From contig CM060734.1 of NCBI GenBank assembly GCA_030704615.1, positions 38,192,001 through 38,256,000 of the forward strand: a stretch of 64,000 nt of DNA, read 5' to 3'. The notes below the pieces were generated by a model. That model made no database searches. It was not told where the DNA came from and saw nothing but the letters and a program-made list of their open reading frames with translations. The translations under genes were made by a program, and so were the position numbers. Shown piece after piece: positions 13,799 to 58,742 of this stretch. This DNA comes from Takakia lepidozioides (Eukaryota; Plantae; Bryophyta). Within the stretch, counting starts at the first letter, position 1. The number at the start of each line of letters is the position of its first letter.

Positions 13799-15699
13799 AG
13801 ACACTACAACAGATTGCGGCTTTTACGTCTCTGTGTTATGATTGCAAATGCAGTTATGGAAGCCATTTACGACTTCCCGACTCTGAAGACGTAAAAGCCT
13901 AGTCAGTTGTGACATGGCAGATATGACTCTCTAGGCTGGCTGTGACGTGGCGCCTGAGCAGCTGTGGGGGTAGTCATACACGCTGGCTTTACGAATGACT
14001 GAACGGACAGTGTAGTACATGTCAGCGGCTGTGCAAGAGTGACACGTGCTTGATACAGAAAATGACACGTGGCAAAGTGTTCGCTCTCCATGAGAGTGAA
14101 CTATGACTACGGGCGTGCTAATCCAATTGCAACACGTGGCGTGTTGTAGTTTTTACACGTGGTCCCTCAGCAGATTGCCATGTGTTATGATGGGTGATTT
14201 TTTTAGGTATATTGCTTTTTTTTTTTAACATATTTGTATTTCTACAACGTGGTGTAGTACTATTGGAGAGTGAAAATAGATGTAGTCATTATTATGACTA
14301 TGATAGAAGTCATATACATGTCTATTACAACAATGAAATATAATATATAATACAAACAGGACAAGGCAGCAAAACATAACTGCAACAAGCTGAGCAAAAC
14401 CAAGAGATTGTACACCATCTCTATTTATCAATCTATTTATTATTATCATTTTTGTAGTGATCTAAAAATACATAAAATAGTCACATGTTCTCATGTGAAT
14501 TATAGTCTAACTGTAACACTTTGAAAAGTGTTCATCCAAATCTTCTAACTACTCGTGTATTCCATCAATCTGCAACCCATCAAAAACTAGGGCTTGCATG
14601 GCTTTAAGAATCACTACAGCAAGGACATCTGTTTTGTTTTCCAAGTTCTTGCATAAGATGCACCAAGCAACATTGCATTGTGAGACACTCACTTACTATT
14701 ACCCCAAAGCGTCCAGGGAAGGTCACTGAGCAACCTGCCAAGGCGGAAACAATTAAGAGAATTATCTAATACCATATATGAAAAACCAATGCCAGTGTTG
14801 TTTATGGTAACTTCTATCCCATGGACTCCTAAACAAACCAAACAAATAGGTTGGTGTGTGTTGGCGAAGTCAGATACTTCACAAAGAAACATGCACTAAA
14901 AATGAGAGCCAGGAGGATAGGAAGGTCACTCACGTTTATACAAAGACGTCTTGCCCACTGCCCAGCACCCTGCGTCACCCACACTCTATCTCTATTCCTT
15001 CAGCTATCCATGCCTCTGCACAAATCAAGTATTCATCCTTGCCTTGCTGCTAACAAATGACAATGACAGCCTACATTTGGAATAGGAAACACCCAACTCA
15101 GCGTAGCACACTAGGCGCTATGCTGAATTGCGTCTGCTACTCTCTGAAATGTAGCAGACATTCACCTTTCTGCCCCGGTTGACCCATCAGTGACTGGGCT
15201 CATATAAGTATTCATTCCACAGCTTCTCCTCATCTCTGTTACCTGTTTTTTGATACTTCCCTGTTGTCACATTGGCAGTATCATGTCAAAGTCACTCCAA
15301 ACTAGATTCACTCAACCAGCTAACTTGCAGAATTGAACATGGCAATTTAGGGCCGATTCTGATAAGAGGGAAAAACAGGGTGAAATGTGTTGAAGAAGAT
15401 GCCTTCATAAGCAGTGCCTGATTTTATCACTTGTGCCGCTGCTGCTAGTTGACCATCTACCCATGCAGGGTTCTTGTAGCTATTGATCCACAGGGAGTCA
15501 CAAGTAATCTTGTGCTTGAAATCTGGCCCTCTTGGATGAATCTGGACCCACACGAAATCCCTGCTCCTTCAGCTATCCATGCCTCTGCACAAATCATGCA
15601 TACATCCTCGCCTTGCTGCTAGCAGGTGACAATGACAGCCTAGAATTGTCAAAGCAAACACTAGCAGGGAAAATATGTTGAAGAAGGTACCTTCACCAC

Positions 15700-17000
15700 T
15701 TTCCCCATCATTTGCTTTCAGGTCTCCAAAGCCCCATCCCGCGCTCCTCCTCTGCACACCCTGCAAGCATCGCATTCCACGACACCACATCTCGTTCAGC
15801 CATACTCCCTTGGCATCCTCAATGCTCCCACATTTAGCATACATGGCCACCAGAGCAATGTTCAGGATGACATCTTGTGCTCTCTCTTTTTATGTCTCTC
15901 TAGTCATTCACGGCCAGAGAAACAGCATGATCGCGCACCTGATTGTGCAAAGGTTCAGAAACACGGCCACCATGTCACCATGGACCTGTCAGGCCAAGAT
16001 CCACTCAACCAGCTAACTTGCAGAATTCAACATGAAAATTTAGGGCCGAAAACAGGGTGAAATGTGTTGAACAAGGTACCTTGATTAGCAGTGTCTGATT
16101 TTATCAATTGTGCCGCTGCTTCTGCAGCTTCCAGTTGATCATCTATCCATGCAGGACCTATGATGGACCTCTGTGCCCTTTCCCAGAGCTGCCAGGCTTG
16201 CATTGGGCATACATGTCCACTTGGGCATAGTTCAAATGATAAGTGGTACAATTCCAGCTTTGACATTGACACCATGGATCTGCTCCATTTTCCAGGGCTT
16301 CCAGGCTCGCATTTGGCATAGATGTCCACCAGAGCAGAGTTCAGAATGACATCTGGTACATTTCAGCTTTGACAATATCACTGTGGACCTGTCCGTCCAT
16401 TCCACAGCTATCAGACTCACATTTGGCATACATGTCACCAAGGCAGTGTTCACAATCAGATTTGGTGTATAGTTCCGGCTTTGACAATGTCACCATGGAC
16501 CTCTACTCCCTTTTCTAGGGCTGCCAGGCTCGCCTAAACTTGTGTTCAGAATCACATATGGTACATTCCAGCTAATTTGACGATGTCACCATGGCCTCTG
16601 CTCTCTTTTCCAGGGCTGTTAGGCTTACATTTGGCATACATGTCCACGAGGGCAGTGCTCAGAATCAGATCTGGTACAATTCCAGATTTGACGATGTCAC
16701 CATGGACCTCTTTGCCCAGTTCTAGGGCTGCCAGGCTCAGATTTGGCATACATGTGCTGCATGGCAGTGCTCAGAATGACATCTAGTACAATTCCAGCCT
16801 TGACGATGTCACCTAGGAACTTTGCGCCCGTTTTCAGAGGTAGCATGCTCGCATTTGGCATACATGTCCAGCAGGGCAGTGCTCAGAATCATACCTGGTA
16901 CAATTCGCGCTTTGAAGATGTCACCATGGAAGTCTTTGCCCTTTTCCAGCCCGCTGCCATGCTCGCACATGCTTTGCCCCCACAAACCAACGTGATGTGG
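15700..17000 (-). pseudogene. PLS-class PPR gene fragments, including ~6-7 tandem ~111-bp copies of one motif junction
   Basis: LELGKEVHGDIVKSGIVPDLILSTALVDMYAKC, MYAKCGSIEDA and RDVVSWNAML-type motifs with many frameshifts. Confidence 0.8.
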
Positions 17001-18676: not shown

Positions 18677-20745
18677 AGAGACATCGCTATGCTGGGGCAC
18701 TCCCACAACGGAACCCACAAACCACCATCTTCTGAGGATCACGAATGGGCTCGTTTCACCCAGCAACTAGACCAAAGATACATCCCGGCGGACCATCACT
18801 ACTCTCGGTAAGGAGGCCTCAACTACTCTTCCTTAAACCTACTGGACGGGTTCTACCTCAAAACCAGCAATATTATCCCATCCTACCTCTTGAGTCACGT
18901 TCACCTTAATAGCTTATGCAACTCTGACCACTACCCGATCTCTGTCTCCCTCCCTCCCTCCCTCCCTCCCTCCTCCCTCCCTCATGTCCTTCCGGCCCAT
19001 TCCAGATGTGCATACCCACCCCCCCCCAGCCCCGCATACTCTCACCCATACCTCAAAATAACATCAAGGCCTTCCAACAACACTTCCATTCAGCCTCCTC
19101 TTATTTCATCCACAAAATCTCTCCCATACTCTCGGACTCCAATTTACTATTATCCCCAGATGCTGCCTGGAATGAAGCCGACACGACAATCAAATCCACA
19201 TTACAAGAAATGACTAAGAGTGTGTTAGTCACATGCTCTGCTCCCTCTGCCCTCTCCCAAACGACGCGATCAACACAAAACGGGGGCTATCTCACCAAAA
19301 CTCAGAAACGTGAATGGACAACGCATCTCAACATATACCACACAATACGCCGCCCGCTTGTTTTTATCCCTCCCCCCCCCCCGGTCCCCTTATTTAATAA
19401 CTGGAGGACGGACCCACGCATCACATGTTTAAACATCCTACCTATATGTCAATCAATTATGCCTCCACCTGCGGACGCCCCCTCTCTCCCTCAATGGATC
19501 GCCTCCCTCTCCAAGCTCGGACGGGAAGCAAAAAGAGCTGCTTACCTTATCACTAAACAAAAAGCCTCCGCCAACCACAAAAAAATTGTCGCCTCCTTTG
19601 GCCAACTACTACATAACCACCCTAAACGGACCCACAAAGCCATCTTCAACCCTGCCATTAACCCGCCCATTGATTGCCTCAAACACAGACTTGGGCACCT
19701 ACTAACCAAACCTGCCAACATCAACAACGAAATCTGGCTCCAAGCCTCGTCTTCCTACATACCTACTGTAGACAACTGTCTACATCTTAGCCATCACATA
19801 CCCAACTGCATGTGTAAAGTCAAACATTACCCATGGCATGATCTTGACGGCTTTTCTCTAGACACACAGGCTCCCCCACAGACCGCCTCCTTGACCTCTT
19901 CACAATTGGCCTATATGACTCGTGCGTGACAACCCCCGTCTATTCGCCATCATGGCGGACCTGGGCTACCCTATAGATGCCACCCAACTCATCGGGAACA
20001 TTTACACCAACAACACCACTGAATACACAGGTTCCTACTATGGCACCACCTCACCTATTCCCATCCTTCGCGGCACCATCCAAGGGGACACTCTGAGCCC
20101 CTACCTATTCAACATCTTTCTCGAACCTCTATTACGATGGTTTGCCCGAGGTAACTTAGGCTACCACTATAAAAGCTCCCCCAATGAAATCAGCGGTAGC
20201 ATATGCTGACAACCTCGCTATACTAGCACATAAGCCTCAACACCTCAACCGACAGGCTGACAAATTATCCGTTTTAATCAATGGTCTGGTATGGAACTAA
20301 GCCTCAATAAATGTGCGGTCATCGCCACTACCCACGGCAGTAAGCTTACAAAATCCCCGATAGCTTCCCATTGCATGCTCCATCTGCACTATCAACAAAA
20401 ATCCTTCCCCTTCTTAGGCCTGGATGAACCGTACACTTATCTAGGCATACAATTGGTTCCATCACTAACCTGGCATATCCAAAGGAGCACCACTCTTTCC
20501 AAACTAACCAATAAGAGTTTAGCTCTACTCAATACCCCGATTTCCATCCGCCCTAAACTAACTATCATCTAAAGAGTTCTCAACCCTCAAATCCAATACG
20601 CCTTTCACACGGCCCCCTTCTCTATACCAGATATCAAACTACTCGATAACAATATTATCCAACTCACCAAATGCATTTGTGGCCTACCCACCAGCACCCC
20701 TAACGTTCTTACCCAACTCCCACAAGATAATTTTGGGATTGGTTC
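18677..20745 (+). mobile_element. LINE ORF2 continuation: APE C-terminal half and reverse transcriptase (pseudogene, 3'-truncated)
   Basis: LDGFYL and NSDHYPI (APE); RGTIQGDTLSPYLFNIFLEPLLRW, AYADNL, MELSLNKC and YTYLGI (RT). Confidence 0.88.
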
Positions 20746-20761
20746 TAGCCCCCTAATCATC

Positions 20762-21300
20762 TTGGCAGAGGGATCCTCGGATTTGAGGGTCAAGACTGCC
20801 ACGGCTGCGCTATGGCAAGCTGCAGCTGCCAGGTTGACAGAGCTGCCAGCTAGGCCAGCCTTTGAGCGCGCCATGGTGACACCTGGAGTTGTCTTGTTAG
20901 ACAACCAGGATGACATTTTCTCTTTGAGTGGACCGGCAGGCAAGAGGTACCGGCCACTGCGGGTCTTGTTGGACTCGGGAGCTCAGCCGCTGATGTTGGG
21001 CAGAGCTGCTATTGCAGGTTTGGGCCTCATGGAGGCGGATATGGAGCCTTGTCCTTTCCAGATACAGACATCTCTGGGATGATCAGAGCAGGCTCGGGGC
21101 ATGACATGGCATGAGTTGGCCATTAGGCTACAGCCGGATCATCATATAGATGGCTCAGTGATGCGAGCCAAGACCATTGTGACAGATGTGGTCTCTTACG
21201 ATGTCCTCGTTGGTGGGGCGGTGTTATATCCCATGGGCTTCACCCTGGATTTTTGGGAGGAGTCAGCATCCTACCAGCCTGGATGGCAGTCAGGGGATGG
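20762..21300 (+). pseudogene. Gypsy aspartic protease domain
   Basis: RVLLDSGAQPLMLG (DSG active site) and YDVLVGG; in-frame stop at ~21080. Confidence 0.8.
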
Positions 21301-21677
21301 TCGTCGTGTACAGCTCCCTGTGACATTCATTGGGGGTGTTGCTGCTGCCCAGCGGGGCAAGATGCCAATACTAGCAGCCTTCATATCTGCAGTTAGTTGG
21401 CCTGGAGAGTTGCTGGAGGGCAATGCCCATGCAGAGGATGTGCCACCTCCAGCAAAGCAGGATGACATGCATGGTACGGCGGAGTTGTTTGCCATGGTTG
21501 CTCACACTCCATTATGGGGTACAAGCAAGGATTTGCAGCAGGCTGCTGATAGACAGGTGCAACAAGCCTGGGTAGAGGCCTTCGTACCGTCAGGAGAGGA
21601 GGAAAATGCGGTGATTGCACCAGGACCACCTCAGTTGTCGCCATTTGACACCACACCTCTTGTGTGGCAGTGCCTGG

Positions 21678-22600
21678 ATTCTGGACTTGTTTGGCGGGAT
21701 CAGCACTGGATTAGCTGCAGTGCTGCAGGCAGGTGTACGAGTTTGACGTTACATGTATGTGGAGAGGGATGAGACTGCACGAAGCGTCTCACTGCGCCAT
21801 GTTGCTCAATTGATGCAGCAGTACCCTGATTGGTTGCCAGTGTCTGCAGTTCGTGGATACCAACAAGCATTGCCAGCAGACATATCTTTGTTGGGGGCGC
21901 ATGGTTTGGAGCGGGTTGACCCTATTTACTTGGTAGTGGCAGGTTGGCCCTGCCAAAGGCATTCATCAGCCGGGCATGACAATGGGTTACACGACTCAAG
22001 GTCACACCTGTTTTGGGAAATGTTGAGGGTCCTACGTTATTTACAACTCTCCAGCATATATCTTGGAGAATGTGCCATTGATGGGTGATTCTCGGGCCAA
22101 GGTGATGGCCAGTGTGCATCAAATGCGGTCTTGGCTTGGGTTAGCAGTGTTGCTGGATGCAGCTGTAGTGGGGTCACGGGCTCATCGCCCACGACTATGG
22201 TGGACCAACTTGATGCCACCTGCACTGCTCAAGCGTGCATTTGATGGGGTGCAACGGCCACCACACCTGACGGTGGATAGCATTTTGGACATAGGGAGAC
22301 AGTTTCAGCGTGTGAGACACGATGACCGATCACCTTTGGCAGTGGTCAATAAGGTGGGTCACCCACGAACCGCATTGCCTACACTGCTCAGTTTTCCAGG
22401 ATCCCATGCTTTTCAGGATGGTGGACTTGGCCTCTTGTGGGATAGCCAGTTGCACCAATTAGTGGAGCCCAATGCTGACGAACGCGAGCGGGCGATGGGT
22501 TTTACCACTGGTACCACGGCAGTGCCATCTCTTTCTGAGGCATCACGTCGTCAGGTGTTGGGGCAAGCAATGGATCTCAATTTCTTGACCTGAATTATCA
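21678..22600 (+). pseudogene. C5-cytosine DNA methyltransferase domain inside Gypsy pol
   Basis: Motif I ILDLFGGISTG (21678), motif II YVERD, motif IV GWPCQ (21942-21956), motif VI YILENVP (~22057), motif VIII AHRPRLWWTN (~22180), motif IX ERERAMGF, motif X RRQVLGQAMD. One in-frame stop (~21744) and one frameshift between motifs IV and VI. Confidence 0.9.
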
Positions 22601-23122
22601 GCTTGGCTATGGCTGAGCAACGCCGAGTACGGAGTACACTTCCCTTGATGGTCTCCCTGCCTACCGAGACGGTACAGGCAGCGAGTGGGGGCGAACAGGT
22701 GAGGACCACAAGGACCACGAGGTGCAGGCCGCATCCATGGCACACGTGGGAGATGCTCGAGGTGCAAAAAGAGTTGGCAGCCAAGGCGGCCATGATGGAT
22801 GAGGTTGGGGATTTTTCTTGGGTTGAGGAGGTCCTCAAGGATGGGATGATGGGGCAGGATGAGACATTGTCACTGACAGAGGAGGCAGTGGTCACTGCTC
22901 AAGAGGTTGCAACATAGCAACCACGGGACGCGTCTTCTACTTCTAAGCTTGCTGGACTCAAGGTTGCAGTCACGGAGGACAACTGGGAGCTTGATGTTGG
23001 ACCTATAGTCACCGGAGGAGAAAGATGACGTATACGGCGGTTCTTGAGGGCTTACAGGAACTGCTTTGCCTTCAGTTTGAAGGACTTATGATCACTGAAG
23101 GGTCAGAGAGATTCGCATTGAA

Positions 23123-24420
23123 TTGGCTACTGACACGCCAATCTTTCGGAGACCCTATAGATACAGTGACATGGAGAGGTCCTTGATTCAGATGAGAACT
23201 CAGGACCTTTGGGAAGCTGGTTTGGTGGAGCTATCTGGGGGAGAGTATGCTTTAGCCACAGTGATGCCAGCCAAGAAGGATGTCTATGGCAATTGGACGG
23301 AGAGACGTATGTACGGTGATTACCGGCCTGTAAATTGTCAGACAAAGTCCGATAGGTATGCCATGCCGACACCAGATGAGATCTTTGATGCCATTGGGCA
23401 TGCCAAGGTCTTTAACACTTTGGATTTACGATCCGGATATCACCAGTTGCCGATCAAGGAGGCGGATAAGCAGAAGACGACATTCTGGGGGTTAAATGAG
23501 CACGGGAAGGATTGCCTATACCAGTGGCGGTTCTTACCATTTGGGCTTAAGAACGCTCCGGCAGAGTTTCAGAGAGTCATGGACAGGATTCTAGCAGGGG
23601 TGGAGTTTGTTCGGTGCTACATAGATGACATCATCATCTTTAGTGCTACGGTGGAGGAACATGAGAGACACCTTCACGTGATATTTGAGCGCTTGAGGGC
23701 GCACGGACTGAAGTTACATCCGGGGAAGTGCAAGTTTTTCCACAACCAAATTGAGTATCTGGGTCACATGATATATCCTGGAGGATTAGGGGTACAGCAG
23801 ACTAAGGTAGAGTCCATTGCACAGATTCTACGCCCCACGGATGTGAGCCGAGTTCGAGCTTTCATGGGGTTAGAAAACTATTATAGACGGTTTGTTAAGG
23901 GATTTAGTGCCATTGCAAAGGCTCTAACCAAACTGACCAAGGTAGACCAGGAGTGGCAGTGGGAAGATGAGCAAGAACAAGTTTTTCAAGAGCTCAAGGC
24001 GAGGTTGACCTCGGCGCCCATCTTGAGACGACCTATCAAGGGGCGTCCTTTTCAACCCATACAGATTTGAGCATGCTGGGGCTTGGAACGGTGCTCACAC
24101 AAGTGGATGATGAGGGAAGAGAGTTCGTAGTGGCTTAAGCTAGCCGCTCAAACAACGCTGCAGAGTCTAAGTATAGCTCATATGAGGGAGAATGCTTAGC
24201 TGCAATGTGGGCCGTGACACACTTCAGGTGCTATCTATACGGCAATCTCTTCACCCTTGTCACGTTTCATCAACCACTCAAGTGGTTGATGGAGTCAGAC
24301 AAGCTTACGGGGAAGCTTGCACGGTGGGCACTCATCCTTCAAGAGTATGACTTTCAGGTTGTGCATCGACCGGGTTTGGTCAATCGGGATGCAGATGGGT
24401 CGAGTCGCAATCCATGCACG
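23123..24420 (+). pseudogene. Gypsy reverse transcriptase and RNase H
   Basis: DYRPVN, LDLRSGYHQ, PFGLKNAP, YIDDIII, YLGH; RNase H LGTVLTQ, YSSYEGECLAAMWAV and LARWALILQEYDF. Confidence 0.93.
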
Positions 24421-24599
24421 AGCCAGCAGGATGACACTGGAGCTCGGTGGCATGGTGAGACGGACGAGGAGATGGTGCCCGGATGGCATGCATCTGCATT
24501 TCTGTATATCTTGGCAGCGGGAGGCCAGGTTGGACCTGCAACAGGGATGACTGTAGATCAAGTGTCTGAGGACCCTGAGGCCAGCAATGAGCAAGGTGG

Positions 24600-25845
24600 C
24601 GCCAAAGATATACATGAGGATTCAGCTGTGTTGGACTACCTCCGCACTGGAGACACGGCAACCACTGTGACTGCCAAGGAGAGAGATCGGATCCTACAAC
24701 GAGCCAAGAGGTTCAAGTGGGAGGGATCACACCTGCTCCAAGTGTGGGAGGATGGTCGAGTGAGGATTGTGCCTCATCCAACACAGCGGGCACGGTTAGT
24801 GCGGCATGCCCATGAGGAGTTGGGGCATTTTGAGGTGCGACGCATTCATAGTCTACTGCAGGGGCAGTATTGGTGGCGTGGTATGCACACAGAGGTGCAA
24901 CAATTTGTGGCTAGGTGCATGGTGTGTGACAGGGTGTGTGTTTCATTCAACGCCCATACTCCACAATTGCACCCTCTTCCGATCATGGGATTGGGCTACA
25001 GGTGGAGTCTTGACTTCGCAGGGCCATTGCCACTGACCATGCGCCACAACAAGTACGTGTTGGTGATGGTGGAGCACTTCTCCAAGTGGATCGAGTTGGT
25101 TCCATTGCCTGATAAAGCTAGTGAGGGAGCTGCGTATGCATTCTTGGATTGTGTACTTAGCCGATTCGGTGCTCCAGCTGAGGTACTCACGGACCAAGGG
25201 AGAGAGTTCTTGGGGGAGTTTCAGGCTTTGTGTGACAAGGCCTTGGTAGACCACCGCACTACTTCTCGGGATCGTCCTGAGGCTGATGGCTTGGCAGAGA
25301 GGGTTGTTCAGACAGTAAAGAGGGGTTTGCGCAAGTATGGCTTGCAGAAGGGACACCTAGGAGATTGGGACCTTCAGTTACCCTGGCTAGCCATGGGCTA
25401 CAGGTTCAGCAAGCAAGCATCACTTGCCTCATTCTCACCATACTTTCTTCTCTTTGGCCGAGAGCCGGATTTGCCTACATCCATTCGTAGAGAAGCTGCT
25501 ACAGTTCTTAACCTTGAGGATCCGGACGTGTGGGCACGTGCATGTGATCAGCATGCAGAGTTGTTCAAGAAAGTCATGCCCATGGCTTTCGAGAATCTTG
25601 CCATTGCACAATATCGTGATACGTTGAGGTATGCTACCATACGTGGTGGGGGCTATCGTCCTGGGATCCGGAGATTTAACCCTGGTGACTATGTTTATCT
25701 GCAACAGACTGCTCCTATGACCTTGGATGTGACTGCAGGACGTGTTATTTTGAGGGTTCGAGAGGTATTGTCCTCAGGTGTCTTGATCTTGGAGGGTCAG
25801 GATGGCATAACTTGGAAGGACCATGTGCGTAATTATGCGCCATGA
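24600..25845 (+). pseudogene. Gypsy integrase (H2C2 zinc finger plus rve core)
   Basis: HAHEELGH...CMVC, WSLDFAGPLP, LTDQGREF, DGLAER, SPYFLLFGR. Confidence 0.93.
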
Positions 25846-25908
25846 CACCTTCCGAATGTTGATGGCAGGATTGACCCAAACCTGGCAGTGGTACCTGCAA
25901 GTTTGAGG

Positions 25909-26043
25909 TGCATGTTGTGTGGGTCTGCTAGAGGGGCAGCCACCATGCTAGTGTGTGATCGATGCTTTAGAGGTTGGCATATGGGATGTTTGACTCCACC
26001 TCTTGAGATGGTTCCTGATGGGGATTGGTTATGTCCGCATTGC
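25909..26043 (+). pseudogene. PHD finger at the integrase C-terminus
   Basis: C4HC3 pattern CMLC...CDRCFRGWHMGCLTPPLEMVPDGDWLCPHC, in the integrase frame after a single TGA at 25843. Confidence 0.88.
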
Positions 26044-26312
26044 ATTGGACAGTGGGAATGGATACAACCATGGAAGGCTAACAAGAAATGCAAGGCCAAG
26101 CTACTAGGAGACCTTGAACACACGAGATCCTGGCTCAAGTTCACAGATTGCAAGACGGCAACTAACGATGGGGCTACTCTTGTACCCGGCCTCTTGGTCT
26201 ATAGAGTTTGAGTACAATAGGGACAGTGATAGAGGACTTAGTACGGCTGTGGCTATTACATCTTGTAGCTATCTGGAGTTAGAGGAACCTATCCACCAGC
26301 TAGGGGGGCGAT

Positions 26313-26729
26313 TGTGGCAGACTACTTTATTGTCCATATATGTGTGGTGTAGTTTGGACAGCGATGTAGTTGTGTAGCGATACGTATGCACACGACAGCT
26401 GTCAAGTTAAATAAACACAGTGTGAAATTAACTAGAATAAAGCTAGTTATTTGTATTTAACACTTGGATTTAGTTCAAGTGTTAAGTCAGGTGTCAAGTT
26501 TAGCTTGACACTTGAACCATCTTATCTTCACGAGAGCGTCAGTCGTGCGGCTCATCTCTCTCGAGTTGAGCCTGCGCGACCGAACTCCTTTACTGCTTAG
26601 AATCTGAGTGTGCTTATGAAGGGAGAATATGATGTTGTGGGGTGGAGTCTCCATAGCTTGGGGTGCCCCTGGCTTTGGACTCTTAGTTTAATGAGTGATG
26701 GTGTTGTATTTCATGTCTCTGCGTCAACA
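26313..26729 (+). repeat. Probable 3' LTR of the DNMT-Gypsy; its first ~83 bp recur at 26753-26835
   Basis: Starts TG just after the PPT and ends ..GTCAACA; direct repeat 26311-26395 / 26751-26835. Confidence 0.6.
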
Positions 26730-26835
26730 GTGTAAGTTTAGTTTTCAATCATTGTGGCAGACTACTTTATTGTCCATATATGTGTGGTGTAGTTTGGACA
26801 GCGATGTAGTTGTGTAGCGATACGTATGCGCACGA

Positions 26836-27201
26836 TAGAAACTTCTCCATCAAAGAATCCTTATTTGGGGAAGCCTCTTAGGGAACCTCCTAATCGCCAG
26901 TATATATAGGAGGCGAGACTGGACACTCTTCAGTCTCGCCAACACCAGTTCAAACTACTCTTGTTTCCAGTTCCCAGTACTTCAGTCCAATTCCCAGTAT
27001 CTGGTACTCCAGTCCAGTTTCCAGCATTCCAGTATTCAAGTCGTGTTCCAATATCTTGCATTCTTGTTCATTGTTATAAAGATCGTCTTGATTCCTATTT
27101 ACTCATCATGCATTCGGCCACGCCGACCTTGACTTCTTGTCTAGTCTTGTACCTCTAGTCTGATTTCTTGTTTGTGTTCAGTCATGCTCTCGTCCTTGAC
27201 A
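26836..27201 (+). repeat. LTR (5'-truncated) of a second Gypsy/chromovirus family
   Basis: TATATATA at 26901; ends CCTTGACA; last ~80 bp match 38480-38558, which precedes a Gypsy gag. Confidence 0.75.
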
Positions 27202-29850
27202 GGTGCCATTAGCCTTGTGTTTCACTTTGAAAATCCATTTCGTAGTGATTGGCCTCTTTCCAAGAGGAAGAGGGACTAGTTCCCAAGTCTGATTCTTGGC
27301 AATGGAGTTTAGCTCCTGTTTCATTGCATCCCTTCAGCCAGAAATTTTGTTAGCCTCGGTGAAAGTTGAAGGTTCATAATGAACCTCGAGTGTGTTTACC
27401 TCATAGTCATGTAGATGTGTAGGGCGTCGTCGTTGTCGGACTGGACGAATAGGGGAGACAAGTATGTACAGTGCAACTCTGGGAGATCCAAGTTCGGGCC
27501 CTGGTTTCTCAAGTGGTGGTTGTGCCGGGACAGAATCTGGTTCTGGAGTGACTTGAGATTGGAGTGTAACCTCCTTTGAGCCTTCCTTATCAACATGAAT
27601 TGGAAGATCAACATGTAGATCTAGGGCCTTCGGTGATGAGGGTGTTGAGTTAACACCAATGGCCAGGGGAGACTCTTCCAAGTTGTCTGTCGGTGGAGTA
27701 GCATAAATAGTTGGTGGATCTATACTTACGGGCTGTTCTATGAATCGGACATCTCTGCTGATGAAAATCTTCCTTGAGAGAGGACTATATAGCCTGTATT
27801 CTTTCGTAGTGTTGTCATATCCAACAAAAATGCATTCCTCAGACTTAGAGTCTAATTTGCTGCGTTTATGTTTCTCTATGTGAACATATGAGATGCTCCC
27901 AAAGACTCTCAAATGGCTCAAGTCTGGTTTGATACCTGAGAAGAGTTCGTAAGGACTTGACCCTGAGTTCGCTTTTGATGGAGATCTGTTCAGCAGATAC
28001 GCCCCTGTATTCACCGCTTCAGTCCACAGATACTTGGTTAGAGTTTTTTCCAGTAAAAGACTTATTGCATGTTCAAGAAGCGTCCTATTTTTTCGTTCGG
28101 CGACATCGTTTTGTTGCGGTGTATGGGGCTGAGTAAGTTGGCATTAGATACCGGTTGCTTGCAGAAACGCAGTGAACTCTCCTGATAAGAATTCTCCGCC
28201 CCTGTCTGTGCGAAGCTTGACAATAGATATGTCAGTGGTATTTTCTATCATAGCTTTAAACACTTTGAAATGTTTCAAGGCCTCACTCTTAGCCTTTAGG
28301 AAATACACCCAAGTAAACCTATTGCGGTCGTCCGTGATGGTCATCATGAAATACCTTGATCCTGAGAGCGATGGCACCACATAGGTCCATATGTACCAAT
28401 TCGAGGATTTTCTTTGCCCTGTTTTGAGATGACCGAGGAAATCTTTCTCGGTGCTGCTTTCCTATGAGACATGCACCACACACCTCTTTCAGTAACGGCA
28501 GTTTCGTTATTCCTTCCGCTTTGTTGTGATTTGACAAATAGTGGAGTCCGTGAAAGTTCAGGTGCCCAAGCCGTCTATGCCACAATCTAGCAGAAGTATC
28601 ATCTTCTAGAGAGAGAACTTCAGTACTATCTACGACATGAGATTCTAGTGATCGTGAAGAGTGCGATTCTACTTTATACAAACTATTCTTTGGGTCCCTA
28701 TTACCACTAAGTCTAATCGTGTGTGGAGATTTTGAGTCTACAAAAATACATTTTCTAGAACTAAAAATTCCTAAGTGACCTGAATCTGTCAAGGCACCTA
28801 CAGAAATCTGATTTTGTTAACTCCAGGCATGTAGAGAACATCAATTATCTTTTTTATTGCTCCATTTGAAAGCTGCAGGTTGGCATGGCCTTTGCCTACC
28901 ACATTGTGATGTTGTCCCCCAGCTGATCTCACGGTGTTTGTACGAGCTGGTATTACTACGTTCTGTAGCAGGGACTTGTTCCCAGAGATATGTCTACTAG
29001 CTCCTGAGTGTATGTACCAATCAGACTCTTTCCCTAAGTCCATGGAAGTTAATGCGACTTCTAGCATATGAGCTAAGTCGGCAATATCATCATCCTCAGG
29101 GTCAGAGCCGTCTTGATCACTTTGATCATTTTCAATCATGTTGGCTTGCTGTGTGGAGCGAATCTTGAAGACTTCCTCATATGGCACAGCGCAGTTTCGA
29201 GCCCAGTGGCCGGGCTTGCCGCATCTATTGCAACAAGATGTGGATTTCTTGATGTGAAAGTTTCCGTGACTGGCCCCTCCTTCCTTTTAATGAAATTTCT
29301 TGAACTTCACCCAAAGTGTCTTATCCTCGTCACTGGTCTTCTTGCTCTTGAGCTCTCGTTGGGATTCTTCATACAACAGCATCCCAGAAAGTTCTTCGAA
29401 ATCCGGCAATTTTTCTTTGTAAGCAATCATGATTGATTGAGTGTAATGCTCGTATGAATCATGGAAGTGTCATCATCTTTTTTGAGAAGAGAGAATTTTT
29501 TTCTGATGTTGAGCCTTCTAGAGTTAGATTTGACCTCAAACACCTTTGCTAGATGATCCCATAGCTCCTTGGGGTCAGTTATATGACTCACTGAGGGGAT
29601 AAGTCTCTCCCAGAGAGTGTCCCGAATAAACGACAAGGCTTTCCTCTGTTGTTTCTCAAACAATTCTTCATTGTCCTCAGTTACTTCAAACTTGGAATCA
29701 AGAACATGAGAAATGTCATCTCTCATCAGAAGATTCTTAACCTTGAAACTCCATACAACATAGTTAGATCTACCAGTTAGCTTGTTTTGTTGAGAGAATC
29801 CTAATCCCATATTCTCCCCCTTAGTAGTCATCGTGATTAAGAAGAACAAA
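27202..29850 (-). mobile_element. Ty1/Copia gag-pol (gag, zinc knuckle, protease, GAG-pre-integrase, integrase, start of RT), decayed and truncated in RT
   Basis: KLTGRSNYVVWSFKVK, CNRCGKPGHWARNC, WYIHSGASRH, LWHRRLGHLNF, LRTDRGGEF, LRVFGS, CIFVGY, WELVPLP...KWIFKVK. Confidence 0.92.
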
Positions 29851-32800
29851 TGGAAAGAAAAGAAACACTATCTATGTTAGTGATGCATGTGTAGAAAGAG
29901 ATTTTGCAACGGTTAGCAGCCGAGGTTTATTCGACAACCAAATAGTCGCAGGTTAGTACAGAAGCAATCAGATCCTGCAGCCCCGATTTCAGCCCGCTTG
30001 CTCCTGGTTTGGCATGTTGATGCCAAGGGTTCTATACAAGTGAGGATTTCTGAGAACCTAAAAACATGGAAACCTATTCAGTCTTCTAACTTGCAAGCTC
30101 CATTTGATGTCACATAGATCAGGACAACTTAAGGCGCATGTATAGGTTCTCTGGTATGTTGTGATCACAACACAAAGAGTCAATCAGCACTGTAGCTCGC
30201 ATCAGGCACAAAACCCTAGAGGAGGCAACCTCCACAATCTACAATTACATGCAAACTCCCTCCTAATTACCTCCTCGAGGTGACTTCAGAGAAATAGGCA
30301 ACATGCTAAGAAAACCTAGTGCGGATGGGCCAAATATTAGACTCATGGATGCAACAATCTCGCACAATGGAGGCGCTGCATTATATCAGTCAGGAAATTC
30401 TATGCTTGTCCCTAGAGAAGAGACAAGAATCAGCCGGTGTATGCGAGTTGACGTGCTTGTACCACCAGTCAGAAGGTGAAGATCTCAAGCTCGGATGGCA
30501 AGGGAAATGAACACAAAAAACAGTGCCAGGACAAATCACACATAAGATCCTACATATCACACGTAAGATCTATGGTGCAAAACTTAAAATGTGCTGGGGA
30601 GAGAGAAGATGCTTGCAGCTATCCAACCCTCAAAGTAAGAACCACAAGCTGAAGCAATAAATGAACCTCCTGGGACCCCAAGTTGTAAACAGTGAAATCC
30701 CGGCAACCAAATCACTTCTGTGCTCTCATACCCCAAAACCAAAAGCCCTAATTAACCACTGACAAGCAACATTAAAGATGAAAAAACAACAACAAGGATG
30801 AAATAGATGGGGGAAGATGATACCTGACCGCAGCTGAGCCTAAGGCTGAGCAGTACAAAACCAACAAATCCAACATGTGGTTGTTAGAGAAGCACATACA
30901 GATCCGGATCATAGCTTGAAAAAAAGTTGGAAATTTTTTGGAGCTAGTTATTGATTTCGTATCAGATCTACTTGCTTATATCTGTGATTATCGAATCTGA
31001 GAGTGTTGTAGTCAAGAAAATGTGGTGGAACTCGTGTGTATAAATGTGAACTTATAATTGGGATCCAACAATACGTTTACTATAGATACTGAGAAAGAGA
31101 AAATTCAACAGCAGACCTTAACATTATCATAAACATGCAGAAGGGGACCAAACAGATAAAAGAGAAAAGGAGTGTTGAACATTGAATATTTGATTTGAGA
31201 GTTTTACTACCGGGTTGGCGCAGTGCAGGGCTGGAATCAATGCATACGGTCCGAGGAGACTCTTAGAAAAGCTTAAAAAGAAAAAACAATAGCAGCTGGT
31301 CCTTCGCAAGGCAAGATTACAGCATTGGGTAGACACAGGTTACCCATTTTGTTTACAGTGTACGTCTTGGAAAAGACACCACGATCCTGTTCAATTAGAA
31401 AATCAACAGGAAGAGAAATATGGTAATAAGCTGAGAAGATGGGCTTCAAAGATGAATACCATGAGTGACCTCTATTATGCTCCCGAAATATCGTTCTCTC
31501 CAGCAGGAGTTGCTCGTAGGATTATATCTTCCGGAGAAAGTCTTTCTTGTACAAAGCAAAAACATGTTCCAGAGGTCTTGCCGGATCAGTTGCTCTTCCT
31601 TCTTCTGAAGGATCTCTTTCTCGTTCCGAAGGTCCTCTCTGTCGAATCTCCCTTACTTCCAAGTCTCTTTCTCTCTCCAGGATCTTTGTCGTTGCAGACT
31701 CGCTCTTCCTTCCGAGTCTCTTGCTCTCTTCATCTTCACTCTCGGAAGGGTTTTCCATCTCTCGGATCTCCTCTTCTTCCTTCCGAGTCTCTTGCTCTCT
31801 TCATCTTCACTATCGGAAGGGTTTCCCATCTCTCGGACCTCCTCTTCCACGCTTCTGATCTCCTCTAGCACTCTCCTGCGCTTCAAGACTGTCTTCCGAA
31901 TCACTAATTTCACCGTCCACAGCTGCAGCCTCCATATTATCAGTGTCCATCGTAGAGCACAGAATCCAAAAGAACTGAGGAGGTCAACCACAAGATGAAG
32001 AAGAAAAGTCTCACGATATTAATCACAGCTGCACACAAGTTTAATGCAGGTTCTCAAGAGCATATAATATAGAATGAATCCACAGATGAAATCGTTGAGT
32101 CATGCAAGCTCAGAATACATTGTATTGATGTGCTGTACTGAAATAGAATGTGTAAGCTGAGTTCAATGCTACGCTCCATCGATATTATTGATCTGGAGTA
32201 TATGTGTACCAGCCTACGGCCAGGGTCCCTCTCAGACTTAATGTGCAATGCTCAAGTTGGCTTGCTCTGGACAAGGGTCACAATCCACTAGGAAACGTGG
32301 TCCTCGTGCCTCTTGAGCAAAAGGTTCCCGGTAAGTTGAATTATTTGTCTATTTAGAACTAGAGCTGTACTTCATGTTAGTATAACTGCTGGCTCTTAAA
32401 AAATATATATCTATAAGTCTAGATATTGTATTCTGCTGCTGTGGAATTTAAGGTTGGGTGTAGAATGCCAACCTCCATGATGCTGAGGACCTGTTTCAGG
32501 AGAATAGGCTCGACGGTGTGGTCATGTCAGTTGATGTCCTTGTCGGACCTCAAGTAGAAGGTCTCTCAAACGAGCGGGCTCCATCTCAGACAGGGATCAG
32601 GATTAAAGAGCTCCATTATATGGAGTGAAATGTTCTGTACATGGTTACTTCATTAGTTGGTCCTGATTTAGAATCAATCTGCGGCCAAAGAAAGGATATT
32701 AATCAGAAATATTGCACAACCACTTTGAGCAGAGATTCTTTCGTGACCAAGTAACCCATCAGCTTTGAGTTTGGGAGTATGACCAAAAAGAATGTGGCGA

Positions 32801-38468: not shown

Positions 38469-39640
38469 TGTTAAGGTTCGCCGACCTTGACTTCTTGTCT
38501 AGCCTTGTACCTCTAGTCTTATCTCTTGTTTGTGTTCAGTCATGTTCTCGTCCTTGAAAATTTGACGAGACTAAATTTTGTTCTTTAGTTAGTTAAGATG
38601 GAAGGCACATTTGCGGAAATGGTCACCACATTGCAGAGTCTTCAGCTCCAGATGCAAGAACTTCGTACATCTACCGCCCAATTGCAAGCTGATCAGTCTC
38701 AAGATCTTGGCAACGCTTTCCACAATTTGCAACAACAAATTTTAGAGTTAAAAGAGTCGAACAATGGATCTTCAACCATACGAGTCCCTACTGCAACAGC
38801 TCCTACTGCAACGGTTTCTCTTCAACAGATTACGAGATAACCAAAGATCAGTATGCCCAAGAATTTTGATGGGACGAGATCAAGATTTCGCGGTTTTGTT
38901 CAACAAGTACGACTGTTCCTACGACTATATCCACAACGCTACCCCGATGAAGGTATTCAAGTGGAATCCGTGGGCACTCTTCTATCAGGCACTGCCATAT
39001 CTTGGTTTGCACCGCTATTAGAAAAAAAATTGCATTTACTATTTAATTTTAAAGCATTCATGTCCGAGTTCACTGCAACGTTTGGAGAGAATGATAGAGA
39101 GAGAGTTGCAGAAACAAAGATGCGAAATCTTCGACAAGGAGCACGTCCTGCTTCCGTTTATGCTGCCAAATTTCGACAACTTGCGTGCGCCCTCGACTGG
39201 AATGAGACGAGCCTCATTAGTCAGTTTCGATGTGGACTAAAAAATAATGTAAAAGATTTGTTGCTGACAATGTCAAACGTGAGCACACTGAATGAATTCA
39301 TCACCCAAGTCATTGCATGCGATAATCGTTTGTTCGAAAGACGTCAAGAAAGCGATTTGGATTGTCAACGACGCATCATGTCACTGCTACTACGACACCA
39401 AATACAATGATCCATCAGACATCCAGTAGTGATCCTATGCAGATTGATGCTGTCCGATTCAAACCATTGACGCCACAAGAAAAACAAAGACGGCGCTCGA
39501 ATGGATTATGCCTCTATTGTGGAGAAGAAGATCACATAGCATTAAACTGCCCCAACAAGAAAAGATTCAAAGCTCGGGGCACAACTCAAGTGTTCGATAC
39601 GAGGAGGTCGGAAAACGACGATGTTCAGTCACAGTAGGGA
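38469..39640 (+). mobile_element. Gypsy/chromovirus 5' remnant: deleted LTR (38469-38558), PBS and gag (38598-39637, disrupted)
   Basis: PKISMPKNFDGTRSRFRGF, LRQGARPASVYA, PMQIDA, CLYCGEEDHIALNC; pol deleted, joined directly to Copia RT. Confidence 0.85.
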
Positions 39641-43861: not shown

Positions 43862-44610
43862 TTAAAAAAAAATCCGTACTACATCTACCATTTCCAACAC
43901 ATGCGGCTCGATCATTGCCTTCTAGATCAATTGAGCTATGTTGAAGTCCATGCTGTTATTTTTAAACGGAACGACCAAAGATGCTACAGAATAAAACTGA
44001 CCAAACTTCAACATATTGAACAGAACACGGGGCAGGGCAATACCAAGTTGTCTTCCCATTTTGTGCTTCGACCACATTTGTGCACGTTCCAGTAGATTTT
44101 GATATGTCAGACACACTCGGTTTTTAATTGATGAAGCGCCATACTTGACATACTCATCAAGCCCATTCTGCATTTGTTCAACACTAATATTGCAATGTAC
44201 AAATTTGAAACCAGGTTTGTAAATATTCTTCAAACAATAACCAACCATCCCAATAAAAGTGTGTAGGTCTTTTCCACGAAGGGCTTTGCAATGAATTATC
44301 AGGTGTCCGGGAGGCGCACTTTTGGGATCATCCCATCCAAGTTCTTTTTTGATCAGTCTATTTAACATCAACAAGCTAGAAACATAGAGCGTACAAACCA
44401 TTTGTAAGTGAAGGTGAAATAATGTGTCACCCCTTTCCAATGCACACACTCTGGAGATGCAGACGCAGTCGATGAAATTCTTCATCTTCTGTAAGCAGCT
44501 GACTATCTGCTGCACCGACACCAATGGTGACACTAGCTTCCAAATATTTTTCAGTGCTCTTGCATTTTTCCTTTGACCTCTCCCTAGCCGCTGCCAGGGT
44601 TGCACACGTC
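43862..44610 (-). pseudogene. Replitron-like HUH endonuclease (main part)
   Basis: Motif I-like EKYLEASVTIG (shifted frame), motif II ALERGDTLFHLHLQ, motif III FIGMVGYCLK; no helicase follows. Confidence 0.8.
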
Positions 44611-44823
44611 AGTGACGTCACGTCACGTCGGACCTGACGCTGACGCGACCAACGTCACGTCAGTTTTGCCGAAAAATCAGTAAAACATGAGTTACGTGAA
44701 AAATATGCCACGTAGGTGGACACGTTGTATTCCAAGCGACACCTTGGCAAATGAATGAATTGTTTTATAAATTACTACATCCGCCAATAGTTGAGGTCAT
44801 TTTTAAATCATTATTGTTAAATT

Positions 44824-45478
44824 GGTGCAACCTCCAAATGGTGGTGGTCGCAGAATTTATCTTATTTTTTAATAGTTGCGACCACCAGTAGAGAGGTTAT
44901 CGCAGCATTTTTTGTTTTTTAAAAATAGATGCGACCACCAGCAGGGGTGGTCACATTTTTTTCTTTTCTTAAACAGTTGCGACCACCGCTACTGGTGGTC
45001 GCACAATTTTTATTTTATTTGTAATAGGTGCGACCACCATCAGGGGGGTGGTCGCAACATATTTCTATTTTTTAATATCTACGACCACCAGCATGGGGGT
45101 GGTCGCAGCATTTTTCTGTTTTTTTAATAGGTGCGACCACCAGCCAGGGGGAGTCGCAGAATTTTTTTTTTTTTTTTTTTTAAATATTCTCTGTGACCAC
45201 GAGCATGGGGGTGGTCGCAACATTTTTCATTTTTTTAATAGGTGCAGAAATTTGTTTAATAGGTGCGACCACCAGCAGGGGGGTGGTTGAAGAAATTTTC
45301 TGTTTTTTTAATAGGTGCGACCACCAGCCGGGGGGTGGTCGCAGCAAAATTTTGTTTTATTTATTTTTAAATAATCTCTATGACCACGAGCATGGGGTGG
45401 TCGCATCATTTTTTTTTTTTTAATAGTTTTTATAAAAAAATAACATGCGACTTCCTCGTGCGACCTGGAGCGGTCGCA
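44824..45478. repeat. Array of GCGACC-N~12-GGTCGC palindromes with T-rich spacers (~45 bp period)
   Basis: e.g. GGTGCGACCACCAGCAGGGGTGGTCGCA repeated; TATATAAGG follows at 45526. Confidence 0.9.
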
Positions 45479-48828: not shown

Positions 48829-49149
48829 GATACAGCTATAACTTTTGTGACCTATCACATGATGTGTAGTATGTTTCCATGGATATCCATGTTTCAGTTT
48901 GGGTACATGCATACGTATACAGAAATAAAAATGGTGAAATATGTGTACCCAAGAAAGGATTTGGTGGTGTGTGTGTGTTTGTGTTTCGTCATTACCTTTA
49001 CATTGTTGATTTCCTATTATGGTTTCAAAAGCCACAAAGGTCAGGTGCAGCTCCCAACATTTATATTCCCCTTCACAAATCCATGGGGAGTCGATACATG
49101 TGTTTTTCATCTGCCTCTCCAAACATACATACAGGTGCAAGGGGACCAA

Positions 49150-50012
49150 CCTCCTGGTGGTCGCACCTATTTTTAAAAAAACAATTGTGTGACCACCAGT
49201 AGCGGTCGTCGCAACTGTTAAAATAAATGAAAAATGTTGCGACCACCCCCCTGCTGGTAGTCGCACCTATTTACTGATTTACTGATTACCCCTGTTAATG
49301 GTCGCAGATTTGCTTTTACTTTTTTATTTTTTATTTTGGGAAACACCTGGGAGCGACAGCTCACAAATCAGGCCCCTTAGTAGTGAGAGAAGAAAATAAC
49401 CTCTTTCATTTATGCGCCAAGAGGCGTAGGAATGGGGCACCACACACGAACCATACCACACCCATCAAGTAACAAGATTTGACCCCAGAATCGTCTAGGT
49501 CGCACTCAGTGCACTTAACCAATTGAGCTACTGACTGTTGGTAGATACTAAAAAATCGGAAAATTATGCGACCACCCCCTACGACCACCCCCCTGCTGGT
49601 GGTCGCATCTATTAAAGAAAAGGAAAATAGTGCGACCACCAACAGGTGGTGGTCGCACCTATTTGTTTTAAACAAAATTTGTGCGACCACCCCTCTGCTC
49701 GTGGTCGCGCCTATTAAAAAAAAAAAAAATTATGCGACCACCTCCCTGTTGGTGGTCGCACCTATTTAAAAATAAAAAAATCTGCGACCACCCCCCTGCT
49801 AGTGGTCGCACCCATTAAAAAAAATAAACAAATCTGTGACCACCCCCCTGCTGGTGGTCGCACCCATTAAAAAAATTAAAAAAATTTGCGACCACCCCCC
49901 TGCTGGTGGTCGCACCTATTAAAAATAAATAAAAATTGCGACCACCATCCTGCTGGTGGTTGCATATAATAAAGGAAAAAAAAAAATGCAACCACCCCTA
50001 CTGGCGGTCGCA
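49150..50012. repeat. Second GCGACC..GGTCGC palindrome array (A-rich spacers), interrupted by a SINE
   Basis: TGCGACCACCCCCTGCTGGTGGTCGCACCTATT repeated; TTATAAGG follows at 50072. Confidence 0.9.
49340..49540 (-). mobile_element. tRNA-derived SINE
   Basis: Minus strand A-box TAGCTCAATTGG and B-box-like GGGTCAAATC; 3' body CATAAATGAAAG..GGGCCTGA shared with 18040-18210; A-rich tail. Confidence 0.65.
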
Positions 50013-56000: not shown

Positions 56001-56190
56001 CGACTCGTTAAACCTTTCAACCAGCTTTCAATCATTGAATCATTTAATAGGGGAACTATTGGTTCACCCTTATAACCATTTTAGATTGACCTCATACTTG
56101 TCCGATAACTTAAAGAGGGCATGTACAACACACTCCCAAAGTTTCAAATCAATCTAAAATCATTTGGCAGGGAACGATTGGTTCACCCAT
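53060..56190. repeat. Diverged ~120-bp tandem repeats (two subtypes) with an embedded ~21-bp minisatellite at ~54880-55230
   Basis: Units ATTGGTTCACCCTTTCAACCATTTT..GAGGGCATGT..AATCATTTG and GCTTTGAGACTTGGCCAGT..GATCAATCGAAATT; 21-mer TTGCCAATTTCAGGGGCTGGA-like. Confidence 0.8.
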
Positions 56191-58104: not shown

Positions 58105-58522
58105 TGCGACCGCCTCTGCTACCCATTCACGCCTCGCAACGTGTCCAGGGAGCGGTCGCACCTAATAACAAAAAATAAATAAAAATCTGCGACCACCACC
58201 GGCTGGTGGTCGCACCCATTTAAAAAATAATTAAAAATGTGCGACCATCCCCTGCTGGTGGTCGCACCTATTTAAAAAAAATGAAAAAGTTGAGACCACC
58301 ACCTGCTGGTGGTCGCATCCAATTTTTAAAAAAGAAAAAATGTGCGACCACCCTCTACTTGTGGTCGCACCTATTAAAAAAAATGAAAATGCTGTGACCA
58401 CCACCTACTGGTGGTCGCATCCATTTAAAAAATAAGAAAAAATGTGCGACCACCCATTTCTGGTGGTCGCACCTATTTTAAAAAAATAAAAATGTGTCCG
58501 ACCAACCTTTGCTGACGGTCGC
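58105..58522. repeat. Third GCGACC..GGTCGC palindrome array (right subterminal)
   Basis: Mirror image of 44824-45478; minus-strand TATATAAGG at 58084-58076. Confidence 0.9.
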
Positions 58523-58742
58523 ATGATTGACAATATAAATCATAATATATGAATTTTACAGATAAATGAAAGAAGTCCACGTAATGAGGCCACATCGGTT
58601 GCCACGTCGGTTTTCATAGTAAATAGTCAATAATAAAGTAAGAAAATAAACATATTTATGTACAGTAACGTCGGTTTAGGACGTGACGTGACGCACATCC
58701 GTCGCTGACGTCGGACGTGACGCTGTCGCGTCAACGCCACGT

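Follow-up and report, generated by a model that had tools for sequence, protein, structure and literature searches.

A Gypsy retrotransposon of Takakia lepidozioides with its own DNMT3-like methyltransferase, a PHD finger and split terminal repeats

Cytosine methyltransferases carried by retrotransposons have been described from dinoflagellates and one charophyte (PMC5890265). The charophyte element, KnitGypsy-Dnmt3 of Klebsormidium nitens, combines Gypsy domains with a DNMT3 DNA methyltransferase (DNMT) and DIRS-like repeats, and was proposed to methylate its own cDNA (de Mendoza 2018, PMC5890265). Later papers cite Gypsy-DNMT elements under 'streptophytes' (PMC12344493, bioRxiv 10.64898/2026.05.21.726589), and a review holds that land plants such as tracheophytes lack retrotransposon DNMTs (PMC6338049). 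We have now analysed a 64,000-nucleotide stretch of the Takakia lepidozioides genome (contig CM060734.1, positions 38,192,001 to 38,256,000, forward strand; the whole stretch is called the window here), which holds a decayed Gypsy element with a built-in C5-methyltransferase and a C4HC3 PHD finger. The element is very probably of the KnitGypsy-Dnmt3 kind, a likeness drawn from the published description. No land-plant report of a DNMT-bearing Gypsy element or of its end structure was found in the literature covered, outside which lay most subscription journals and Repbase; the accessible text of PMC6453930, PMC10952607, PMC9477723, PMC9985172 and PMC6317226 makes no mention of such an element in land plants.

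The likeness to KnitGypsy-Dnmt3 comprises the Gypsy domains, an intronless DNMT3-like domain within the polyprotein and signs of purifying selection (PMC5890265), as well as DIRS-like split repeats, in which the terminal units A and B are arranged as A-coding-B-A-B (Fig. 4c and Fig. 1e legends, PMC5890265). Land-plant range, the PHD finger, a conserved stop and defined termini are what the present family adds to the Gypsy-DNMT3 kind. It is found in embryophytes at high copy number, and its PHD finger follows the integrase, whereas 'PHD' occurs 0 times in the text and searchable supplements of PMC5890265. The stop splits gag, protease and DNMT from the reverse transcriptase (RT), whereas the DNMT of KnitGypsy-Dnmt3 shares an open reading frame (ORF) with the RT (supplementary file 1, PMC5890265). 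DNMT and RT lie in the same frame, split by the stop in the clade of the window element and continuous in the relatives P0206, P0209, P0214 and P0220. SymbioDIRS-Dnmt3 and SymbioLINE-Dnmt are similar in being retrotransposons with a C5-methyltransferase, and SymbioDIRS also in having a DNMT3 and split repeats, but they rely on a tyrosine recombinase or on long interspersed nuclear element (LINE) machinery, in contrast to the DDE integrase and 4-bp target-site duplications (TSDs) found here (PMC5890265). The EpiLTRs of Cymbomonas and Euglena, long terminal repeat (LTR) elements in which a DNA methyltransferase is likewise accompanied by a chromatin reader, carry DAM, a DNMT4-related DNMT and a chromodomain instead of a DNMT3-like domain and a PHD finger, and their authors call them distinct from Gypsy-DNMT3 (bioRxiv 10.64898/2026.05.21.726589).

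The protease, intron-free C5-methyltransferase, RT, RNase H, integrase and C4HC3 PHD finger follow each other in this order on the + strand between 20762 and 26043, and the element extends beyond, to a right end at about 26837. Its first part is a remnant of the gag-protease linker (20762-20950), about 50% identical to Marchantia ORF1 proteins. The aspartic protease (20951-21331), with DSG at 20972 and one stop, scored weakly with Asp_protease_2 (E 0.024), yet is 58% identical to its Marchantia homologue. In the DNMT3-like domain (21678-22602, PF00145), broken by stops and a frame change, motifs I-X are unpermuted: DLFGG is at 21684, GWPCQ at 21942, ENV at 22066, HRPRLWW at 22183, ERAMGF at 22486 and LGQAM at 22558. 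All the motifs named in the initial annotation (LFGG in place of DLFGG) were thus found on the + strand, where and in the order it had placed them. The domain is colinear with the Marchantia protein P0005 at 72-74% without an intron, in agreement with the claim that an intron-free DNMT lies between protease and RT. The RT follows (22918-24034, with a lead-in from 22918, the core from 23099 and YIDD at 23618), then RNase H (24049-24414, from Pfam and alignment to relatives), the DDE integrase (24739-25842) with its HHCC zinc finger from 24805 and C-terminal region, and, at the integrase C-terminus, the PHD finger (25903-26043, its motif at 25909-26043), assigned by PF00628 and PDB matches and lacking the aromatic-cage Trp. 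The profile search which had been suggested as a check returned E-values of 2.8e-8 for DNA_methylase (PF00145) and 6.7e-11 for PHD, beside 5e-32 for RVT_1, 7e-21 for RT_RNaseH, 7e-14 for rve and 3e-13 for Integrase_H2C2.

The order of protease, RT, RNase H and integrase, the Gypsy-type RT and the DDE integrase place the element in Ty3/Gypsy. Two full direct LTRs with a primer-binding site, by which Ty3/Gypsy elements are also defined, were not found; split repeats, A at one end and B-A-B at the other, stand in their place. Pfam scans of the window gave no chromodomain at the integrase C-terminus, as in chromoviruses, but the PHD finger. The domain scans of the window gave no match to the tyrosine recombinase family of DIRS, Ngaro and PAT elements, and rve integrase is present in both the window and the relative L012. 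An Rfam scan of the window gave no match. The copy is dead, as had been annotated, because it contains seven in-frame stops (21080, 21744, 22591, 23026, 23089, 24136 and 25843), not counting that at 22915, and its frame changes about four times (near 21677, 22045, 23105 and 24055). It is also 5'-truncated: gag and the 5' A repeat are missing, and the Marchantia ORF1 proteins have about 550 aa further upstream that are absent from the window.

The family reaches well beyond Takakia. A search with the C-terminal DNMT piece found 86 homologous proteins among 2310 candidates, the named ones being from Marchantia (up to 74%), Calypogeia, Riccia, three Sphagnum species and Closterium; one bears the label of a bacterial metagenome-assembled genome. 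With a family profile, 91 long polyproteins were obtained, and the named ones came from Haematococcus and Cymbomonas. The relatives from these two algae and from Closterium are more distant than the bryophyte ones. Searched against a library clustered at 50% identity, the profile matched 642 clusters at E up to 1e-30; among 132 new representatives, 94 had another element domain and 38 were short DNMT-only pieces. No named protein of vascular plants, hornworts or Klebsormidium appeared in the DNMT-piece or profile searches, which were word-seeded, so that this absence is weak evidence. The liverwort and Sphagnum relatives and the domain scans bear out the annotation of a land-plant Gypsy element with a built-in C5-methyltransferase and PHD finger. 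In run X1, 60,718 contigs fell on the stretch, with a summed depth of 0.5-1.2 million over the element and 200-2,800 over the neighbouring Copia and LINE sequences; summed contig depth is no copy number and was not used as such. In a second organism, a single 5009-nt contig covers 21377-26317, from the DNMT to the polypurine tract (PPT) in one piece.

Several database records of the family are easily mistaken for other things. The Marchantia proteins P0001-P0012, P0037 and P0083 (e.g. Mp_4g09160, Mp_6g11220 and Mp_8g17980) are ORF1s of the element annotated as hypothetical host genes, and in some of these gene models a splice seems to bridge the conserved stop. A scan of GTDB gave 2 loci. Each is a complete retroelement on a small contig of a bacterial bin, and we read them as stray eukaryotic DNA with no sign of a bacterial donor. 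They (L012:1-9285 and L013:1-10362) are complete or near-complete DNMT-PHD retroelements with open frames, and L012 was assembled as a 9158-nt circle. Contigs of this type can pass for bacterial methyltransferase genes, and P0034 likewise. The 11 matches in an IMG/VR scan were weak and of phage type (31-53% over short stretches), and none was an element of the DNMT-Gypsy kind.

The DNMT was found in 70 of the 72 examined loci. Three loci have the order RT, RNase H, DNMT, integrase, PHD; in the remaining ones with enough flank, gag or protease lies upstream of the DNMT (42/48) and RT or PHD downstream (42/43). These counts contradict a one-off capture, which the annotation had held would show as family copies without the DNMT. 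The order with the DNMT after RNase H also occurs in 71 proteins, the named ones from chlorophytes, whereas the bryophyte and Closterium proteins have the DNMT before the RT. Trees of 158 DNMT and 94 RT domains (FastTree, midpoint-rooted, built of family sequences, with neither host DNMT3 nor other outside references) both recovered the DNMT-before-RT group, with support of 0.98 and 0.89, respectively, and in both the window sequence stands beside Marchantia and Sphagnum-like copies. The RT and DNMT phylogenies that had been called for are therefore concordant within the family. As the two trees agree, the DNMT has long travelled together with the RT. The PHD finger is present in both architectures, so the pairing of DNMT and PHD would predate land plants. 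Two Haematococcus proteins (P0232 and P0233) have the PHD finger N-terminal of the RT, unlike its usual place after the integrase.

By profile and predicted fold the element DNMT is assigned to the DNMT3 type. The family profile scored DNMT3A at E 1e-24, DRM2 at 1e-9, M.HhaI at 1e-7 and DNMT2 at 5e-6, and the motif order is unpermuted, unlike that of DRM. For the natural relative P0006, which shares 71% identity with the window piece, the AlphaFold model has a pLDDT of 89, and DNMT3A/B/C were found in all the Foldseek matches listed for it (best E 2e-19). The N-terminal piece alone scored best on M.HhaI, and searches with short pieces therefore mislead. Among the DNMT-before-RT sequences, 39 of 41 have the catalytic Cys and 41 of 41 have ENV; in the RT-RNase H-DNMT group the Cys is found in 93 of 94. 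The Cys, ENV and the motif VIII arginines hardly vary in either architecture. The ratio of nonsynonymous to synonymous substitution (dN/dS) of the DNMT was 0.10-0.23 in 9 between-subfamily pairs with dS close to saturation; 3 within-subfamily pairs gave 0.38-0.50 (RT 0.29-0.47), by which the domain tested as being under purifying selection. Some results speak against this or against self-methylation. Near-saturated dS weakens the estimates, and dN/dS was not estimable in 9 of the 21 pairs. The observed/expected CpG ratio of the window copy is 0.51-0.63 over DNMT, RT and integrase, compared with 0.56 for the window and 0.56-0.66 for the neighbours; being no lower than in the neighbours, it leaves no footprint of self-methylation. 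The KnitGypsy-Dnmt3 enzyme, the closest one tested, gave no methylation in yeast, a result which its authors call inconclusive (PMC5890265). A precedent in favour is that the SymbioDIRS DNMT3s methylate CG there (PMC5890265).

The DNMT and the RT are separated by an in-frame stop, TAG CAA CCA at 22915-22923 (+), which ends ORF1 (gag, protease and DNMT) and is likely a read-through signal. The ORF1 proteins of Marchantia, Calypogeia, Sphagnum and others end about 85-140 residues past the DNMT, at the position of this TAG. In 52 sequences covering the region, deduplicated to 44 clusters at 97%, TA[GA]CA[AG]YY was found 200-400 nt after the DNMT in 39 clusters (background 0.067 per 200 nt), a stop in the aligned column in 41, and an RT in frame with ORF1 in 28 of the 38 measurable clusters. 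L012 has both ORFs open around TAG CAA TCA. Among the matches listed for the runs covering 22640-23060, none differed at 22915-22923, and nearly all other copies listed differed at the stop 23026. Judging by this conservation, the stop at 22915 is a family feature and not a lesion.

It is probably leaky and read through. Type I read-through has the motif UAG-CAR-YYA (PMC3542737), a tobamovirus consensus that fits the window, L012 and L022, none of which has an ATG there, and in the viruses too the stop splits an upstream ORF from the polymerase, although most metagenomic copies of the element read CAA-CCC. The stop is immediately followed by CAA in lineages that share only about 50% identity in their DNMTs. 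Several observations weaken the case: strict CAR-YYA occurs in only 5 of the 39 motif-bearing clusters and CAA-CCC in 31, an in-frame ATG comes next in most CAA-CCC clusters and would allow reinitiation, most stop clusters come from one subfamily and hence are not independent, and the deeper relatives P0206, P0209, P0214 and P0220 have no stop between DNMT and RT. If read-through occurs, the DNMT would be in the abundant Gag product and the PHD finger in the rare one. The description of the element as 'writer plus reader' in the initial annotation is accurate in that both domains are present, but they lie on opposite sides of the conserved stop. The stop and the split repeats are features beyond that description.

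The C4HC3 PHD finger after the integrase had also been annotated correctly. Its best PDB matches include CHD4, KDM5B, ATXR5, PHF12, KDM5A and PHF21A, which we take to be mostly readers of unmodified H3. PHD fingers that read H3K4me3 have an aromatic cage with a Trp two residues before the zinc-binding His; at this position Gly is found in the window and in 77 of 78 relatives. Readers of H3K4me0 need an acidic residue before the first Cys, which only 7 of the 78 relatives have, a point against such a function. Binding to the unmodified H3 tail is a guess, with moderate support. PHD fingers on retrotransposons were called widespread (PMC6673714, PMC8557442, bioRxiv 10.1101/2021.11.30.470311) and the DNMT-PHD pairing is old and also found in chlorophyte elements, two further qualifications of the 'writer plus reader' description. 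The family resembles chromoviruses and PHD- or MBD-bearing retrotransposons in having a chromatin reader in the polyprotein, a proposed insertion guide (PMC6673714, PMC8557442); in contrast to chromoviruses and MBD elements, the putative targeting here would be by the PHD finger in place of the chromodomain or MBD.

The 3' end of the window element consists of the PPT (26300-26311), repeat B1 (26311-26397), GC, repeat A2 (26400-26750) and repeat B2 (26751-26837), all on the + strand. B1 and B2 form an 88-nt direct repeat of 97.7% identity, and B2 is the right element end, at which the relatives end too. The PPT directly precedes B1, and the same CTAGGGGGG tract is found in L012, L023, L025, L033, L039, L054 and L067. 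A2 was assigned by its position and TGTCA start because it gave no blastn match to the A of L057; its 5' partner A1, lost in the window, is present together with A2 in L014, L057, L059/L061 and L067. Three insertions (L057, L059/L061 and L067) are complete relatives of the form A-coding-B-A-B, L025, L033 and L039 end at the first B (A-coding-B), and L023 and L054, like the window, hold the 3' half of the split repeats. In the relatives, insertions start with TG and end with CA, and the 4-bp TSD is exact in 4 of 6 and has one mismatch in 2 of 6; the left end is lost in the window. The B-A junction CACGACA-GC-TGTCA (26391-26404, +), which abuts the right and left element ends and is likely an integrase site, is common to the window, L012, L014 and L023, with a variant in L067. 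L013, of the other architecture, ends in CACGACAGCTG. In none of 18 loci does a B directly precede the 5' A, and the TGG primer site was absent after A1 in all 9 loci inspected. Repeat A of the window (26491-26511), L012, L057, L059 and L067 contains a short perfect hairpin with a stem of 8-12 bp, though the sequences are not alignable.

These features can be joined into one mechanism, to which, as a whole, we give an even chance. In this Ty3/Gypsy lineage of bryophytes and green algae, the DNMT likely enters the particle in bulk together with Gag, and likely methylates the cDNA of the element ahead of its insertion. ORF1 (gag, protease, DNMT) ends at the conserved in-frame TAG-CAA-YYN and ORF2 (RT, RNase H, integrase, PHD) continues in the same frame. 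Most ribosomes would stop at the TAG and a minority would read through, so that particles would hold far more DNMT than RT or integrase. The PPT of a retroelement defines the left cDNA end. Plus-strand priming at it would place B there, yet the insertions begin with A, and the joined A-first ends must therefore be made elsewhere. The integrase likely makes them by cutting the internal CA-GC-TG palindrome of circular or end-extended cDNA: a two-repeat circle opened at the internal junction would give exactly A-coding-B-A-B, and a one-repeat circle A-coding-B. Cutting of a palindromic circle junction has a precedent in the foamy-virus integrase (PMC1180852). Released DNMT would methylate the cDNA de novo, new copies thus arriving pre-marked, and the PHD finger would anchor the integration complex on nucleosomes whose H3 tail is unmodified, away from H3K4me3 promoters. 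The broader version, a Viridiplantae-wide Gypsy lineage that abounds in bryophytes and has a replication mode of its own, in which the circle is opened at the palindrome, DNMT3 is supplied at Gag level for pre-methylation and the PHD finger places copies in chromatin without H3K4 methylation, we consider improbable.

The repeats themselves hold two points against the circle. It has two equal junctions, yet its second product, A-B-A-coding-B, was seen in 0/18 loci, and the A-coding-B form may also come from B-B recombination after insertion. An ordinary linear LTR cDNA, with ends made by reverse transcription of a full-length A-to-B transcript and the B-A palindrome serving only as the end-restoring template, would explain why a single permutation is seen, without B or A-B before A1, and is in keeping with TG...CA ends and 4-bp TSDs as in normal DDE integration. 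This is nevertheless rather doubtful: the PPT precedes B and not A, so that standard plus-strand priming gives no A-first end, and the TGG primer site is missing. The TAG might likewise be a true stop, with ORF2 made by reinitiation, an internal start or spliced RNA, as the ATG after TAG CAA CCC in the main metagenomic subfamily and the departure of CAA-CCC from CAR-YYA would allow; the lack of that ATG in the window, L012 and L022, which fit CAR-YYA, and the wide conservation of CAA make it unlikely.

Similarly, the DNMT may have been kept for another job. It could bind or protect the cDNA or RNA within particles, or act in trans by methylating the insertion site or host chromatin. The inactivity of the KnitGypsy DNMT in yeast, CpG no more depleted than in the neighbours and, if read-through holds, a Gag-level supply greater than one cDNA needs agree with such a role. 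Near-invariant catalytic Cys, ENV and motif VIII arginines fit catalysis, though, and the fold is closer to the DNA-acting DNMT3 than to DNMT2, which makes this explanation rather doubtful too. A single capture, or a processed pseudogene of a host DNMT3 or DRM inside a Gypsy copy, is by comparison close to negligible. Over the DNMT, the summed contig depth was about half of that over RT and integrase in X1 and between a third and a half of it in X2, which may mean that some related copies have no DNMT or are more diverged there. The capture is refuted by family-wide homologues and by the conserved position of the DNMT across loci in liverwort, moss and algal elements, together with the congruent trees and the unpermuted motifs, unlike those of DRM. 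Neither of the other two refuting signs named in the annotation was seen: the DNMT region has no TSD or termini of its own, and its nearest relatives, in the tree without host DNMT3, are all element-borne. We prefer the reading of a packaged methyltransferase acting on the element's own cDNA.

The presence of this kind of element in liverworts, Sphagnum and the Takakia genome, including the model Marchantia polymorpha, means that the role of a transposon's own methyltransferase can be tested in a plant for which genetics and methylomes are available. The split ends with 4-bp TSDs suggest that a DDE integrase here obtains its substrate by a route not yet explained, and such elements would escape LTR finders built to look for two full LTRs. 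If the lineage does methylate and is placed by its PHD finger, it would provide land plants with a mobile source of de novo methylation.

The element is flanked by other decayed retroelements. A LINE fragment (18678-20761, +; RVT_1 E 4.4e-5 at 19919-20206) abuts its truncated 5' end and has a summed contig depth far below that of the element. On the 3' side lies the LTR remnant of a different Gypsy family (26838-27201, +), likely the insertion target, whose last approximately 80 nt match 38479-38557, the sequence preceding a Retrotrans_gag ORF at 38841. An assignment of 26752-27201 as the 3' LTR of the element was rejected, since the relatives end at B2 with a TSD and the tail matches this other family. 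Its LTR end and Retrotrans_gag (38479-39410, +) are nested in Copia sequence, and a decayed Ty1/Copia with gag, zinc knuckle and integrase (27202-29870, -) lies beside the LTR remnant.

Elsewhere in the window, a SURNod19 gene at 881-1624 has its best named match in Sphagnum (47%), with named seed plants at 32-41% and other matches up to 51%. Repeated fragments at 15372-17000 and 60675-62124, on both sides of the transposon cluster, translate into what we presume to be pentatricopeptide repeats. A Replitron HUH endonuclease domain (43922-44608, -; PF21859 E 2.5e-12) adjoins arrays of about 52-nt GCGACCACC...GGTGGTCGC repeats (44807-45421, 49122-49987 and 58171-58547). Two inverted repeat arrays, one near 45000 and the other near 49700, enclose an open 877-aa hAT transposase with DUF659 and a dimerisation domain (46040-48673, +). 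Together with more ORFs at 50441-52966, among them a RING finger, it may form a single large composite element. Tandem arrays with units of about 120 nt and about 21 nt occupy 53061-56172.

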